Source of the DNA: Microbotryum violaceum
Taxonomy: Eukaryota
Assembly (NCBI GenBank): GCA_001244265.2
Contig: CDLV01000013.1
Span: 806,001-870,000 of the forward strand
Direction: 5' to 3'
Length of the DNA: 64,000 nt
In this document: positions 2,274 to 27,974 of the stretch, in pieces
Position numbering within the stretch: the stretch's first letter is position 1
Layout: every line of letters starts with the position of its first letter
Made by a program: the position numbers and the translations under genes
The notes under the pieces: model-generated
Databases searched by the model: none
The model's input: only the letters and a program-made list of their open reading frames with translations
What the model was told of the DNA's origin: nothing

Positions 2274-5200
2274 CTAGGCCCACGATATCCGCGCCATCGG
2301 CCCTTGCTGTTCCCCGACTCGCGTCAACGCACTCTTGTAGTCCTCTGAATGTCAGGCAGTAGGTTGATTCATGTTAGCACCGCCTCCACAGTTGCAGAGA
2401 GTTATGTGCTCGAACTGACCCATTTCGAACAGGTTCAGATGCCCGTCGCCGGCCGCACATCCGAGCATCATATGGTGCGGGTGGAACGCCACCGACGTCA
2501 TCGAGATGTTGCGTTGGTTCATGAACCCGACTGGGAGAATGTGGGGCGCGAGAGTCCTCAGTATCAGCATTGGTGATGAAGGGCCAGGGCGATGGAGCAC
2601 AGGTTCGCCAGAACACTCACATGAGTTGCCGAACTTTGAAATGGGTTCAGTCATGTCCTTCATGCTCCACAATTTGATCACATTGAACGCCGACGAGCTG
2701 TGCAAACCACACTACTCTTCATCAGAGATGGCCGTATCAAACAACGGAAGCGATACCGAGGCACCCACGTAGCAAAGACAGGGGCATGTTCATGCACCGC
2801 AAGCTGAGTCATCCCTCCGTGATGCGCCTGGACCCTCTTGATCGGTTCGGCTAACCGAATATCCCACAAGCACGCCTCACCTCCCAAACTGGTGAAAGCG
2901 CGTCGACGAATCAGCACCCAAGATATTTTCCGGTGCAGCAGCTCGCTTCGCGAAACTCACCTAGCGCTGACGAGCTCTCGATCGCCTCCTCGCTGCATGT
3001 GCACGTTCAACAACCAAGATTGATGATGCCCCTTGTAGCTGCGCACCATGTTGTCCCTCGCCGAAAGGCGTCGATCGTAGATCCTCATACCACCGTCTCC
3101 GAACCCAGCAGCCAGAATATTGCCTGCGACTTGGTCCCCCGTCAGACTCGTCAAACACGAATTTGCTCGAGTGGGCAGATCCTGCACGGCTTGTTCTTTC
3201 GTCGCGTCCCACACTCGAATCAGCTTGACGTTGCCACCCATCAGTAGCTGACCGCGACCTTGTTGCCATTCGAGGACGAGTCCAGCATCTTGCTGTGTCG
3301 TCGTGGTCGGGATCGTTTCTGCGATGCCCTGGAAGGACGAGACGAGCTCGACGTTGTCGGCCGAGGCGTAGTTGCGGAACAGTCGAACGTGACCGTCCGC
3401 TGCAATCGAAGAAACAGATGTGGTCAGCTCTTTTCATCCCTAAACCTTGAGCAATCGAAATATGCTCACCCGTCCCCGAAAGCAGCATCGCGACATCATC
3501 CTCGTTGACGAACTTGAGCGAGGTAATAGGTACCGATGCCGGGCTCCCGTTGGCGAAGCGATTGATGCGCAGGTTCTTCTCCCAGTCGTACACACTGCAG
3601 GACAGGCGCATCAGCACACCCGCTCAAATTTTTCTTTACATCCAATCCAACGCACGTAATTTGTCCTCGATCATCCGCAGCCAGTAGATGCGACTCGAAC
3701 TGATGGAACAAAATCCGTGTCGGAATTGTATCGTTGCTGTAGAACCCAATCTGCGAGTCCCATCGCGCACGCGAAGCAGCCGTCTTCATCGGTTGTGTCT
3801 TGAGGATCACGGCTTCGTTGCGTTGACGCCTCCACATCCTTTCGTTGTGTTGCACACTCCCAGGTTCTTCTGATTCGGTCGTCTGTCAGTGCGAGTCGGA
3901 GCGCTCAAGACATCAGCTCCCCATCGCCAAGGCTCCTGGTTCGACGAGCGCACTGACCTTCATCTGCGACTCCTTGTAATACTCCAGCGCATACTCATAC
4001 ACCAATCCCTTGAGCGGGAACACCTGATCCGGTTCACCCTCGCTCAGCGTCGGCGCGGCTCTTCGTCTACGCAACCTCTCCTCATCCGCGGCAACGAGCT
4101 CAATCATGATGCCTTCGATCGTCGCCGAGTCCGTCGTTGGGATCAAAGCTTTCTTCGATGAAGCTTTCCCACCCGCTCGCGATTGCAAGTAGCGTAATGA
4201 GTCCGTCGAAGCGGACGAATGTAAAGGCGAGGCACTACCCGTCGGAGAAGCGGCGACCGAACCTGATCCTCCTCCCGTCGATGCACTTCGCCCGTTCAAC
4301 CTCAGCGCCGAGGGTGGTGGTGGAGGCTGATTTGTCGTAGCTTGTTCGGTCAAAGTCGAGCTTGTCAAGTGCGCCAAGGACTTCATCGCCGTCGTCGTCG
4401 CTCGTTTCATCGTCCCTCCCAATCCAGGTGTGACGTGCCCATTCGATCGAGGGGTCATACTCGACGACCCTGGATCGGACGAGTGCAACTGATCTCGCAA
4501 GACGCTTCCCGCCGGAGGCGCCGGGTCGATGCTAGCTCTCAGTGCCGACGACGGAGCGGAGCGTAAAGCCAGTCGAGCTGATGGTCCCAACGGCGAAACA
4601 AAGACGAGGTCGATGATATGATCCATGACAGTCTGCGCCAATGCCGCGATATCGGGCTGAGGATCGGCGGTCAGATCAAAGATGGTCTTGTACATGCACG
4701 AGAACATCACGGCCCGGAACTTCGGCGACTTGGGACCCTCGATCAACGACTCGGCCGTGGCGTTGATGCTGGAAGCGATCGCCGAGGTCGGGTCTTCCCG
4801 AGCAGGTGGGGAAGTCGATGAAGCTCGTCCTATTGTCGATGAAGCATTGGCGGGACCGAGACCACCTATCGGAGGGCTGCTCGAGGCATTGGCAGCGTGG
4901 GCGGCTTTGGTCGCGCGTTCCATCAGGGCGCGATATGCGGCAATGATGAACTGGCCAGGATGTTCGTTCACGATCGAGGAGAGCAATGCGATCAATTCCC
5001 GTCGGACCAAAGGTGATCCGTCGGTCGAGCTCTTGAGCGTGGCCATCGCGACGCCCAATTCGATGTCATTCGCCTCCTCAGGTGATAGGCCACACGCCGG
5101 CCCCGTAGCAGCGATTGAACGCCCAAACTTCTTGTTCGGATCACTCGACCCCGTCGTCCCCAACAACGTCCCCAATGCGTACAGCACCGATGCTCTGACT

Positions 5201-22636: not shown

Positions 22637-23263
22637 TCACTCCCCCCTGGCCTTCCTCAGTTCTACACTATGCAACTCCTCCACCTGATCCAACTCGTCC
22701 TTGGCAACCCCCTCCCTCCTCAGCCCCACCACATCCCCCTTTTCCCCACCCAAGCCTTCGAACAACTCCTTCCTCCCTCTATACTTCTTCTCCCACTCCC
22801 TATACCCCCCATCCAAAATCTTGACTTGCACTCCCTCGGGCCAATCATCATGTTCAGACAGCGCTTGAGCGGCCATAGGTCCGCGATATTGCGAGCGCAT
22901 GCAATGCGTGATCACTGTGTTGAGGCCTTGAGGGAGTCGAGGTTTGATGTGGGTTGAAATGATGGATTGAACGGAGGCGGGGGAGGAGAAGAGACGGGAG
23001 GAGAGCCATAAAGCTCGGGGGAGATTGCCACCGGGGAAATCGGACGTTCGTACGTCTGAGGTGCCAGGAGGGGTATCATGTGGGGGGGTTCAGTGTCGGG
23101 GCGTATGGGCTATGAGGGTGGGTGTGGGGTCTTTCCATGCCGAACTGCTCCGATTGAGTGAGATCTTACCGATGATGAGGAACGAATCGGGGTTCGGACT
23201 CGAAAGAATCATCTGCTCCACCTCGGTCGTGGAGATGTACGAAGGCGAAGCGGCGCGAGCCAT
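22637..23263 (-). CDS. Small Cdc25-like rhodanese phosphatase / arsenate reductase (Ych1/Ibp1/Acr2 family); 2 exons
   Basis: FLII/DVRTSDFPGGNLP, active-site loop HCMRSQYRGP (CX5R), and VKILDGGYREW. Confidence 0.85.
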
Positions 23264-23995
23264 ATTGGACTGGGAAAGCGGTATGGGCGACGAAGTCAAA
23301 TGACGTCGACCCCACCCGAAGTAGGTTTGTATTGGTTTGAACGTCGTGGGGCGGCGGGAAAGCGATCGTGGGTTCGCCGAGTTGCTAGCTTGAGCGGTCT
23401 GACAGGGGACAAACGACGTCACTCGTGAGCGCGTGAGCTCGGGCGGCGCTTCGTGCCAGGCTTCGGCGAGACCGAAAAAAACCCGGGTTTGCGGGCTTTG
23501 GTATTACACCTTCTGAGTCTTGACCACTGTGGTAAAAAGAACAAGAAGAAAGAACTCCAGGGCGCAAGATCTCTACATGCTGTTTTCGTGTAGACATGTT
23601 TGTTCTCTTTTCATGTCGAATTGATGGCGCTTACTAACCTACAAATGGTCGACTATCGCAGTCGCAAGCGAAACGGAGTAACAAAAACGTCAAGCCCGAA
23701 TGGGTCCGCCCGTAGCCGCCCGTTCGCCGCCGCTAGCCTCGACAGCTTTGGTACCTCGCCTCCGACGTCTCGAACCCCTGCACGACGCTCGACACCTCTC
23801 TGCATCTCCTACCGGTGGAGATTAGTGTGTCTTTCCGGTACATCGCAACCAGGCACGACGCCAAGACGGTCCACCCTCTCGCTGCCATCAAAAGTGTCGC
23901 ACATTCAGTCAACGCTCTACGCCGACGTTTTGATCGACTGTAGCGACTGCAGCTCGCCCGCGACCCCGGCATTTACGTGATCGACATCTTGCACC

Positions 23996-26900
23996 ATGGC
24001 AGGTGCAGTGGCTCGGGCTTCGACTCGCACGCGCAAGAAGACTGCAAGGGCACAAGACGATGACGAGCGCGACGGCAGCAACCCTCCCAGCCAGCCCTCA
24101 GCGCCGGCCTCGACCAGTGCGAGTGGTGCCAGTGCCAGTGCGAGCAGGAGCAGGAGTAGGAACGGCACTGTCGACCTCGCCTCGGACGCTGATGCACCAC
24201 TCGTAGCAGCTGTGGCTTCGAGCTCCAACAAACGTAGGTTCCTGCCTGACACTCTTTTCGAGTTGTGGGACGCCAAGGCTCCGATAGCTGACATCCCCCA
24301 TCTTGATCTCTTCCTTTCCTTCTCTCCTTCCCTTCTCTGTCTCTCTCGACTGCGGATCCTCCTCGACCTCGATGACTGTCGACTTGCGACTGGTGCGCTG
24401 CCCGCCCGCTCAATCACCGGCCTCGCCTTTGCCGTGTGCCTCTTTGAAATCGGCGACGAATGACGGTGTCGCATTTGCATTCTAATTGTACGCGCTCGCG
24501 CTCGCAATGCTAATGCCGTAATGGACGCGCGCCGCCCCCGCCTTCGGGTTCCTCTCGCGACCTGTTTGCGGTTCCCCGCTTTCATTGCTCTCCCGCCGCC
24601 TGTACGCTCTCCCCGGTCTGTATATTCTCGTTCGACTTCGACTTATTTTATCATCCGACTCGGAATTTGCTGTCAACCTACACCATACTCGTTCATCACC
24701 CGCTGTCGACGTGGCGAACCGCGTCGGGCCGCGCCGCGCTTTCAAAAAACAACACGACTCGGACGACCCCCACCCGTTGACGACTTTCGTCGCGCCGGCG
24801 CGCCATGGCCTCCAACCCGCATCCCAACTCTCACCCACACCCGCAACACCATGGCAACAATATTTATGCCGATCCGCACAACGTCGACCACGCTCGCAAT
24901 ATCGTCGTCGGCTCATCCTACACGATGCACTACCCGATCGGTCCGCCGCTCGACATCATGCATGCCTATGCGCCGATGCCGATGCCCATGCAAATGCCGA
25001 TGAACCACATGCCGATGCAACCGTCGCATCGACCGTCGGTTCCGATGATGCCTTTACAACCCATCACCAATACCGCATCTTCGTCCTTCATTTGGCCCGC
25101 TTCACCGCCCAAAGCCGCCGCTCCCAATACGCCGGCCGCCGCGCCTTGGCCTCAGAATGTGCTGCCTCCACCGCCCTCGGCCGCCCCAAACCCTAAATTG
25201 GCTGCGGCGGCGACGACGACAACCAAGGCCGCCCGTGGAGGTGCTGCAGCGAAACGAAAGTCGATCATCAAGGATGAAGCCGCAGCCGCACAGTCTGCAG
25301 CGCTTCTGCTCGCGCCCGATTACACCGCCAACCCTGCCGGACCTGCTTCATCCTCGGACACGGATTTCAAGTGCTCGTACTGCGATAAGATCTATAAGGG
25401 CAAGCATGCGCGGTCGATCTGGAGACGTCACTTGCAAGACAAGCATGGTATTCCTTTGGCGTCGCAGCCTCGACGGACCCGATGGGACAACGGTGAGTAA
25501 ATGCTGGCCTGTCTCCTCAGATTTGTACCCGCGCCCTGGCACGACCAACAGGGACGATGCTATTCTCAGGCGCGCGACGCGCTTGTTTGTCGAGGCCCCA
25601 CAAGCCGCACATCTCGACACAATGTCGTACTACACGCCCAAGGCACGTCATCAGGACCGAGGACATTCGTGTCTTGTCCTGGTCGAGTTGGTGTGTGCAC
25701 GCGTCGCGACGCGCAAGAGGAGGCCTGAGCGCATTATTTTCAATAGCTCCTCGGGACGTCATGGCTTGTCAGGGGCCTGTCAGAAGCTGGCTTCATTCGC
25801 AGACTTCGCACTGCACAGTCGATCAGTGCTATCATACTGATCATATCCTCCCCCTCCCCCCTTTTTTTATGTTCGTCCTGGCAGATGCGAATCGGCCCAA
25901 GTCCGAAGAAGAACGGCGGGCTAGAACGCTAGACTCCAAGCGAAGATGGGCACGCAAGAACCGTGGGACCGACGGGAGATCAGCCGGTGGCGACACGCCC
26001 GGTCGCGGTGGTTCGGCCTCTTTCGATGGCCGTGACGAGGGTGAATGGGAGGACGACCAGTTCGGCGATGAGGACGGCAGCAGTGCCGGTGGTCGAAGTC
26101 GAAGTAATAGCGCCAGTACCTGGCAAGAGAGCAAGACCGCACTCGCTCGTTCGGGCAGCGTACCCACGCTCGGTGGTGCTGGTCGACTTCAGGACGAGAA
26201 GCCCGATCGGTCGAGTCTGAGGGCCAGTCAGTCTACATCGGCCGTTCCGCACGCCTCCGAAATCGATCCGAGACATCCTCAGCAGCACCGCGGGTCTTAC
26301 GCTCATGGGCCACCGGCCCATCTCGTTCAACCTCGTGGATCACATCTGCCCCACTCCCCATCGTCGTACTACCAAGCACCATTGGCTGCCGCTGTCCCTA
26401 TCGGTGGGGCCTTGTCTGCGCCGCTTTTCCCGCAGGCGAATGAGGCCGAGTTCTACCGAAGCGAGAACCCGACATCGATGATGCAACGCCTTGGTGCCTC
26501 GATCCCTCGTCCCGCTTCCGCCTCTTCCCTCCCTCCACCGTATGCACCAGCTCAATCGACGTCGTCTGCCTCCTTGGCGTACTATGCCTCACGAGCCTCG
26601 CCGGGTCGGGGTAGTCGGACGACACTGCGACGCGATCCCAAAAGCCCAATACGCACCGGGTCCAACACCGAGGATGCCGCGGGAGTGCTGCTCGCGCTCA
26701 AGATGGCCAGTCCTTCGACAAGCTCGATCCTTCAGTCACCGGTCTCGGCGACCCGATCACGTCGATTCGATGACGATTCAGACGATGATGAGGAAGAGGA
26801 CGAAGAGGCCGGTGACCTCAGTCTCGAAGCGAACGAACCCTTCTCGGCCTTCACCGCCAAACAAGCGAGTCGGCGCACAGGTGGGAGTCGACTCGTTGCA

Positions 26901-27974
26901 AGCGGACGAGGGGCCGCTTTCGCAAGCCCTACTCGCGACCCACCTTCCTCTCCCGAAGGGTCCGATTCCTCGATCGACAACTGGTCGCGCAACGAAGGCG
27001 AAGCTTCGACATCGACGATGGTCGATCCGACGAGCTCGAAGCGAGCCGGCAAGAAGCGTAGCGCCGAGGACTCGCCACCACCTTACGGCAGTGCCCAAGC
27101 GCTCGTCGGTCTCAGTGCCAGTGCGCGCAAGATCCGGCCGATCGCCGGCATTGCGCCGAATGGTAACGGGCAGGTCGCTGGTCGACCCCTAGGTCCTAAC
27201 TCGTCTTACCACCAATACACCAGCTTGACGGCGACTCCGACGCCGGCGATGCGCGTCACGATGGAAAGCTCCCCCGCGATGGTCTACGGCCGAGACTTGT
27301 TGGAAGGTGGCTCCATCGGGCGCGGCCCACGGCACGATCATCATCATGATGACGACGATGGCGATCTCGAGGAAGACGAGCCGAGTCGAGGCGGCCGTGT
27401 CCACGACGGAAGCCCTAGTCGTGCGATGCGGTCCCATCGAAATGGCAACGGACCGATTGAGGACGCTTCGTCCTCTGCGCCTCGAGCTCATCACCACCAT
27501 CCTTATTCTCACGGGTACCCTTCGTCGGCTTCGTCGGCTCGTCATTACCCGCAAGCGCTGCACCACCATCACCCCGTCGGACTAACTTCGGATCTCGGTC
27601 ACTTCAACCTCTCGTCCTCCTCCGATCCCTCGCATCCTTCGTCTTCGTCCTCGTCGATGCCACCGCATCCTTCCTCATCTTCAGCCTCGTTCCCCCACTC
27701 GACACCCGGTGGTGTTTCAACCGATTACTACCGACTCCGAGGCTCGTCCCCACCCTCGCGCTCGAACGGCGGAAGCGGCTACCTCTTCTCCTCCCCCGCC
27801 CACCCCGGCATCTCAAAACAACTCGGCCTGCACGCCCAACCCGGTCCCGGCGTCTTATTCTCCGGAGAAACACCAGGTCGCAACGCCGCGGTCGATGTGC
27901 TCGAGTCGAGATCCAAAGGGATGAGGTTGGTCGAGGAAGGTGGGAGTCGAGCGGTGTTGAAGTTGGAGGATTGA
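23996..27974 (+). CDS. C2H2 zinc-finger putative transcription factor, long isoform (exons 23996-24233, 25115-25492, 25885-27974)
   Basis: Zinc finger FKCSYCDKIYKGKHARSIWRRHLQDKH followed by a basic helix QPRRTRWDN/DANRPKSEEERRARTLDSKRRWARKNR across intron 25493-25884 (GTGAGT..CAG, phase 1); long Ser/Pro/His-rich tail. Exon 1 is inferred from donor GTAGGT at 24234 and a phase-matched AG at 25113-25114. Confidence 0.7.
24234..25114 (+). other. Predicted 881-nt intron with distal branch point and 825-nt AG-exclusion zone
   Basis: GTAGGT (24234), GCTGAC branch point (24287-24292), ~55-nt pyrimidine tract (24293-24347), no AG from 24288 to 25112, first AG at 25113-25114 restores frame. Confidence 0.7.
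24805..27974 (+). CDS. Alternative short-promoter isoform of the same zinc-finger gene, with a His/Pro/Met-rich N-terminus
   Basis: ATG in strong context (CGCCATGG) downstream of a pyrimidine-rich promoter-like tract; 103 codons open and in frame with the zinc-finger exon. Confidence 0.6.

Follow-up and report, generated by a model that had tools for sequence, protein, structure and literature searches.

The first intron of the Microbotryum lychnidis-dioicae gene MVLG_00729, which encodes an uncharacterized C2H2/BED-like zinc-finger protein, contains 103 codons that are written without a single AG dinucleotide. Given that assembled contigs join position 24233 directly to 25115 of the window (the whole stretch of 64,000 nucleotides that was analyzed), these codons lie inside an intron that is spliced out, and the exclusion of AG from this intron is conserved in related loci. 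On balance, we lean toward an arrangement in which one gene provides two N-termini: an intron with a distant branch point would be scanned to its first AG and would at the same time hold an internal start for the second N-terminus.

Gene structure and product

The reading frame opened by the ATG at 24805 is identical to MVLG_00729 (P0001, 925 aa), for which this ATG is the annotated start. Upstream of it, on the same + strand as all parts of the gene, lies the coding part of exon 1 (23996..24233), which comprises 79 codons plus one nucleotide and encodes a basic N-terminus of the R-x-S-T-R-T-R-K-K type (N-terminus A). Exon 1 is supported by the joint from 24233 in three sequencing runs and by homologous N-termini in P0005, P0012, P0015, and P0026, as well as by counterparts with homologous N-termini at the related loci L005, L007, L008, and L010. 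Intron 1 begins with the 5' splice site GTAGGT (24234..24239) in phase 1 and ends with the AG at 25113..25114, placed by the contig joint. It is followed by exon 2 (25115..25492), which is common to both forms and encodes the C2H2/BED-like finger (~25366-25446). Intron 2 (25493..25884, 392 nt; joint 25491>25884, GT..AG, cut +1) contains AGs and has an ordinary branch-proximal acceptor, and exon 3 (25885..27974) encodes a basic helix behind the finger and then a long disordered region.

Homologs of P0001 comprise 117 longer proteins and 39 of similar length, and the named ones are all from basidiomycetes. The protein passes the zf-BED profile marginally (20.8 bits versus a cut-off of 20.6; E 4e-4). 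Its finger has the form Cx2C...Hx4H known from BED/C2H2 proteins (Pfam PF02892; PDB 2els, ZFAT); the protein combines a single such finger with a basic helix and belongs to a basidiomycete family that has no name. In an AlphaFold2 model, the finger and the basic helix are ordered and little else is, with residues 1-171 mostly at pLDDT <50. In the ESM Atlas, no named family exceeded 0.9, and a Rfam scan of 23500-26000 gave no match at E<=1 and hence no structured RNA family. MVLG_00729 is single-copy, with just one weak match elsewhere in the genome (E 0.3), and its product is presumably a transcription factor. A divergent gene on the - strand (22637-22900 and 23112-23330) starts ~700 nt upstream of exon 1; we take it, by its exon peptide, to be rhodanese/Cdc25-like, and it may share its promoter region with exon 1.

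An AG-free zone in the first intron

The AGs at 24286 and 25113 are 827 nt apart and enclose an AG-exclusion zone of 825 nt (24288..25112) without any AG, so that the acceptor of intron 1 is the first AG past the zone. In a gap of this length, 28.9 AGs are expected and the probability of finding none is ~3e-13; GA occurs 39 times. The next longest AG gaps of the window measure 157 nt on the + strand and 217 nt on the - strand, and AG density upstream of the zone, at 24000-24299, is normal (7-11 per 100 nt). In a genome sample of 600 kb out of 33 Mb (60 x 10 kb, both strands), the longest gap is 345 nt and the sole one of at least 300 nt. The same sample contains 609 donor-like sites with a CTRAY motif, a mixture of real and false introns, for which the next AG follows at a median of 23 and a maximum of 136 nt. 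A genome-wide pattern of CTRAC plus 15 pyrimidines, which produced 152 matches versus 113 in a reversed control, did not set such introns apart and was abandoned.

The sample's longest gap is located in the first intron of a gene that is, judging from its N-terminus, presumably a VAC8-like armadillo gene (L029:6480-6829; G000:C3, about 1,906,480-1,906,829, +). Its CTGAC is 102 nt away from the donor and 245 nt from the acceptor, a CTCAC stands ~30 nt before the acceptor, and no in-frame ATG occurs inside; this is possibly a second distant-branch intron. The second-longest gap, of 289 nt (L052:7606-7895, + strand), ends at AAG.

At its 5' end, the zone of MVLG_00729 opens with a predicted distant branch site, CTGAC (24288..24292), assigned by motif and position and found at the equivalent place in four relatives. 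Its candidate branch A at 24291 would lie 57 nt from the donor and 822 nt from the acceptor. Directly behind this motif follows a pyrimidine tract (24292..24351, 88% Y) that ends in CTCGAC (24345-24350). This tract is the strongest of the region and takes the place of the promoter-like one that had originally been put at ~24540-24700. Two more branch-type motifs, both CTAAT, are found at 24482..24514, 628 and 600 nt from the acceptor. Five ATGs cluster at 24372-24521 and the next one is only that at 24805, which leaves an ATG-free stretch (24524..24804) that could accommodate an internal transcription start and the 5' UTR of a second isoform. Folding of the zones of the window and of L007 indicated no stable stem between branch and acceptor (z -0.71 in both); because unusual RNA structure is missing from the zone, looping-out is not indicated.

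Conservation of the intron layout

A metagenome scan yielded 18 related loci. Ten are of the close type and six of these have at least 550 nt of upstream DNA; L009, L011, L012, and L013 were excluded from this count for having too little. All six have an AG-free gap of 349-522 nt that stops shortly ahead of the finger linker (at least 420 nt in L006, where the contig ends). Because L004-L006 are near-identical, the six loci stand for about four lineages, and their sequences suggest a resemblance of L004-L007 to Sporobolomyces proteins and of L010 to Rhodotorula graminis/glutinis. An AG desert at the equivalent position is absent from the eight other loci (L014-L021; maximum gaps 84-237 nt), which appear to be Malassezia-like, rust-like, or weak matches.

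The full layout can be followed in five loci, i.e. the window, L005, L007, L008, and L010. Each has a basic exon 1, a phase-1 donor, a CTRAY/TTRAY motif 42-71 nt on, a pyrimidine tract of 72-88%, CTCGAC, the AG-free zone, an in-frame ATG, and the acceptor. In each, the AG gap opens within 12 nt of the CTRAY/TTRAY motif, and the putative branch A is separated from the acceptor by 337-822 nt. In L004, L005, L007, L008, and L010, the gap's first ATG already reads in frame into the finger; the window differs by its five earlier ATGs.

Several details of individual loci were also noted. In L008, the AG gap is 349 nt long and the nested frame has about 9-10 codons; the acceptor of this locus is a CAGCAG tandem (L008:603-607). 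L010 has two in-frame ATGs in the zone, at 3374 and 3662, and reads GTC at the position where the R. glutinis protein P0024 starts, so that the start of the second N-terminus can move. Directly past the pyrimidine tract, a block of 32 nt is identical between L005:370-401 and L007:2218-2249 amid diverged DNA (24340-24355 is the corresponding place in the window). Its CTCGAC core is found 36-72 nt past the branch motif in 5/5 loci and occurs at 0.84 per kb in the Microbotryum sample; the block may be a promoter or an RNA-binding element.

The same layout might be read differently: two isoforms could exist while productive splicing uses a weak branch site near the acceptor, and the AG-free zone would then only stop a short, wrong intron from the donor-proximal motif. 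Candidates for such a site are TTAAT/CTCAT motifs in the last 30 nt of the intron in L005 and L007 (TTAAT 20-29 nt before the acceptor), and for three human minigenes described in PMC5378181, distal branch sites had a modest effect and proximal ones carried inclusion. However, the last 60 nt before the acceptor contain no CTRAY, TTRAY, or CTHAH in the window, L008, and L010, and the conserved elements are the donor-proximal motif and the pyrimidine tract. We consider use of a near branch site unlikely.

Splicing in sequencing-run contigs

Contigs of runs X17 and X9 (study P3) and X19 (P7), i.e. three of the four runs, join 24233 to 25115 and thereby omit 881 nt with GT..AG borders. The joint is in phase 1 and lets the 79 codons of exon 1 read in frame into the finger. 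All three runs also join across intron 2. The kind of run is unrecorded for X17 and X9 and RNA by guess for X19, the comparison had no DNA control, and the short side of the joint measures 30 letters; we read these runs as RNA because they show joints at two GT..AG introns. The fourth run, X18, consists of four short pieces of low depth without a joint. Since the contigs also show that the 392-nt intron 2 is removed whole, the M. silenes-dioicae model P0119, which has 45 extra residues from within this intron, is probably a mis-annotation.

Other contigs lie inside intron 1 (24285-25144 in X9, 24407-25144 in X17, and in pieces in X19). They start upstream of the putative start zone at 24524-24804, at 24285 in X9 and 24407 in X17, and overrun the acceptor by 30 letters, one below the bridging threshold; intron 2 is likewise partly covered in X9 and X17. 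Given this overrun and the partial cover of intron 2, the intronic contigs are no proof of a separate mRNA, and pre-mRNA or DNA may account for them. Assembled contigs carry no information on starts, strand, or levels. The depths in X9 (27.4 for exon 1, 11.6 for the intron, and 39.3 for exon 2) sum neatly, but were not used as an isoform ratio, as there is one figure per contig. Similarly, 24234-24284 is uncovered and a contig begins at 24285, close to the branch motif, but this was not read as a start site or a lariat stop, because contig starts vary by run (24285, 24407, and the loose end of X19).

Differences between X19 and the window within the intron (indels at 24340, 24535, and 24766; a replacement at 24402-24491) all fall upstream of the ATG at 24805, and the X19 contig over 24857-25144 has no gaps. 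The 39 loose letters before 24331 in X19 contain an AG, which would be located ~23 nt past the branch A if these letters are colinear. Scanning should take this AG, yet X19 joins to 25115, which we regard as a hint against scanning.

The intronic contigs extend far upstream of the ATG at 24805, as they would if the second N-terminus required no second promoter and were translated from intron-retaining mRNA, either by leaky scanning or by re-initiation after the exon-1 frame stops in the intron, with slow distant-branch splicing as the switch. Intron retention is described as the main form of alternative splicing in fungi (PMC5851062), and leaky scanning is known in Cryptococcus (PMC7049704). 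However, the ATG of exon 1 is in strong context and would be read for 155 codons to a stop at 24463, after which more upstream ATGs follow, and such mRNAs are reported as typical NMD targets (PMC7049704). Retention thus strikes us as an improbable source of the second N-terminus.

The nested reading frame

The nested ORF (24805..25114; N-terminus B, predicted to be disordered) starts in the context ggcgcgccATGG and comprises 103 codons plus one G, from where it runs on in frame to the zinc finger. The original prediction had called it an alternative first exon. Its in-frame start inside the AG desert of the intron is as described, whereas the ORF is not spliced as an exon of its own: it extends exon 2 in the 5' direction without a break. 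The account of its composition was also accurate: the peptide contains no Glu, all four Gln are encoded by CAA, AGN codons are absent among ten Ser and two Arg, and the lone Lys (AAA) forms the acceptor AG together with the next G.

It had further been suggested that amino acid composition is ruled by splicing. The AG rule bars only AG-containing codons and [KEQ]-[VADEG] pairs, and Glu and Lys are rare, not barred, in the nested frames of relatives (one Glu in L007, three Lys in L005); the missing Glu of the window is not forced. Synonymous choice, in contrast, is shaped by the rule. With the peptide taken as given and codon usage set to that of exon 3 of the gene, the probability of finding no AG is 9.6e-4 in the window, and the corresponding values are 5.5e-6 in L005 (with the codon usage of L007), 3.0e-6 in L007, 0.03 in L010, and 1.0 in L008 with its short frame. 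Three of the five loci thus range from 1e-3 to 3e-6, and because these probabilities are low given each peptide, synonymous choice appears to be bent by the AG rule.

A proxy that uses proteins alone, runs free of [KEQ][VADEG] pairs, ends exactly at the acceptor in all four Microbotryum proteins; it was dropped as unspecific because rust proteins also have long runs. Several genomic ORFs of relatives (P0127, P0128, P0134, and P0138) contain no start of the B type that is free of AG-forcing pairs.

Selection on the frame and its intactness in close relatives had been singled out beforehand as informative. In L005 versus L007, one pair of relatives outside Microbotryum, the nested frame shows dS 0.56, dN 0.09, and dN/dS 0.16 (Fisher p 5e-9), and 30 of 49 changes fall on third positions. 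The two shifted frames of the same region give dN/dS of 0.94 and 2.36, and other parts of the gene 0.04 (finger), 0.07 (linker), and 0.26 (exon 1). The four indels in the nested frame are all multiples of 3; non-triplet gaps are found upstream of the ATG. In this pair, purifying selection acts on the nested frame. Within Microbotryum, the peptide is intact in M. saponariae, M. silenes-dioicae, and M. intermedium, and its identities of 96/103, 100/103, and 77/91 indicate conservation similar to that of the exon-2 linker (57/62, 57/62, and 47/61). The idea that the same DNA serves as both intron and coding sequence therefore holds for its removal by splicing in X17, X9, and X19, and for selection on its frame in one pair of relatives.

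For Microbotryum itself, the nested frame could still be seen as a relic or by-product, given that loss of AG removes TAG and C-rich DNA has few stops; only isoform A would then be made, and the annotated start would be a gene-finder's choice. Isoform B is predicted here from sequence and gene models, the other frames of the zones are also poor in stops (0-4), and the Microbotryum peptide shares little with the B peptides of the Sporidiobolales. Against this stand the frame-specific dN/dS and the triplet indels in relatives, the preservation of the frame in four Microbotryum species at the level of exon 2, and an intron of 881 nt that would be hard to explain without content. All in all, a mere by-product seems quite unlikely to us.

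Two classes of N-termini

The original proposal of isoforms with unrelated N-termini agrees with the gene models of relatives, which are predictions and fall into two N-terminal classes. The basic A motif is found in 4 of the 29 top models, and public models take either start. R. toruloides has both classes: P0015 (A) and P0022/P0025/P0120 (B, again predicted models) converge on the same exon-2 sequence.

Among 17 B-type N-termini picked by eye, 15 contain R-x-P-[LF]-x3-[ST]-x-N or R-x-x-L-x3-[ST]-x-N, a pattern that was defined after the sequences were seen and that does not occur in the 17,228 aa of the rest. We take this motif to resemble the D-box of the APC/C (consensus RxxL...N). Five rust-type homologs carry KEN in its place. 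In Microbotryum, the place of the relatives' R-x-P-L-x-x-x-S-x-N is occupied only by PLQPITN (25051..25071), which lacks the Arg.

Discussion

In fungi, intron definition predominates (PMC12861292), introns are short, with a mean of 65 nt in Cryptococcus (PMC5851062), internal starts are described as common in Cryptococcus (PMC11302930), and scanning to the first AG has been described for human distant branch points (PMC1431707). In the arrangement that we favor for MVLG_00729, isoform A (about 901 aa by arithmetic) would start in exon 1. The spliceosome would define a short unit of fungal size, from the donor to the predicted branch A, and branching would occur there, after which the first downstream AG would be taken. 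Since an AG at any earlier point would become the acceptor, selection would keep the zone free of AG. Isoform B (925 aa) would originate from a transcript that starts inside the zone, most likely in its ATG-free stretch, and never meets the donor; it would be translated from the nested ATG directly into exon 2, and an internal promoter would be its simplest source. A distant branch site would allow an intron-defining organism to fit a second 5' UTR and coding start into an intron without a branch site in the coding sequence. The start-site switch would replace the basic, NLS-like N-terminus with one that is disordered and rich in Pro/His and that carries the D-box-like motif in most Sporidiobolales. 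Because this swap would bring a D-box-like motif and remove an NLS-like one, isoform B may differ in stability or localization.

Instead, the mRNA of isoform B could be what splicing step 1 leaves on the 3' side, the lariat-intron with exons 2-3: some spliceosomes would not get as far as the remote acceptor and would release this piece, which would then be debranched or recapped, stabilized, and translated from the ATG at 24805. The distance from branch to AG is extreme, step-1-only products have been described (S. pombe TER1, BDF2), and in four lineages no ATG in another frame stands between the branch motif and the in-frame ATG. On the other hand, uncapped splicing intermediates are normally degraded, the window has five upstream ATGs past the branch site, and 5' ends are not deducible from contig ends; we regard this route as very improbable. 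If it were true, the kinetics of this intron would decide between two N-termini, one of them with a degron-like motif, of a Microbotryomycetes-wide regulator, and the intron would be a 5'-end counterpart of the spliceosomal cleavage in TER1.

Both ingredients of the favored arrangement, a distant-branch intron with an internal start, are known: AG-exclusion zones from vertebrates and internal starts from fungi. What seems new, against the literature covered, is a coding frame within a long fungal zone. The vertebrate introns described by Gooding et al., 2006 (PMC1431707) and Taggart et al., 2017 (PMC5378181) likewise have a long AG-free zone that begins with a branch motif and a pyrimidine tract, use the first downstream AG, show normal AG density upstream, and are associated with alternative isoforms. 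The vertebrate zones given in PMC1431707 are shorter (381 nt in PTB and 438 nt in nPTB versus 825 nt in this fungus) and contain silencer elements before a cassette exon, whereas the zone reported here presumably holds a 5' UTR besides a coding frame that is under selection. In addition, and unlike in vertebrate distant-branch introns, the predicted branch motif is only 57 nt away from the donor.

In fungi, distal ('early') branching for step 1 has been described for introns >150 nt of C. neoformans and S. pombe, and a 3' splice site >50 nt away from the branch has been regarded as perhaps too distant for step 2 in C. neoformans (Burke et al., bioRxiv 10.1101/224170). Here, in contrast, the exons are joined at a predicted distance of 600-822 nt, and the AG-free zone is conserved. 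Long spacing is also known from S. cerevisiae, where introns with distant 3' splice sites are bridged by RNA structure (PMC3239191), whereas the zone of MVLG_00729 shows no stable structure and its AGs are removed, not hidden. With respect to the second isoform, the closest likenesses are TRASS in Cryptococcus (PMC11302930), for which downstream starts, one of them inside an intron, give a second isoform, and the long and short forms of Neurospora COT-1 (described in PMC11484838), the second of which comes from a downstream start. These are truncated or downstream products, whereas here the N-terminus would be swapped for ~100 intron codons under an AG ban. In the literature covered, with most subscription journals and supplements out of scope (e.g. 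the branch tables of 10.1101/224170, which may hold long fungal cases), we found no paper on this locus or its tag, no coding AG-exclusion zone in fungi, and no fungal zone of this length.

A natural, conserved intron that is seemingly scanned over 340-820 nt makes it possible to test linear AG scanning, whose part in the choice of 3' splice sites has long been debated, in vivo in a yeast as tractable as R. toruloides. It also provides a clean case of a splicing rule that is written into the codon choice of an overlapping frame. Loci of this kind can mislead genome annotation: public models start with one N-terminus or the other, and the spliced exon 1 that the contigs support is left out of MVLG_00729. 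If the start-site switch does replace a basic motif with a degron-like one, it would constitute a regulatory switch in an unstudied family of basidiomycete transcription factors.
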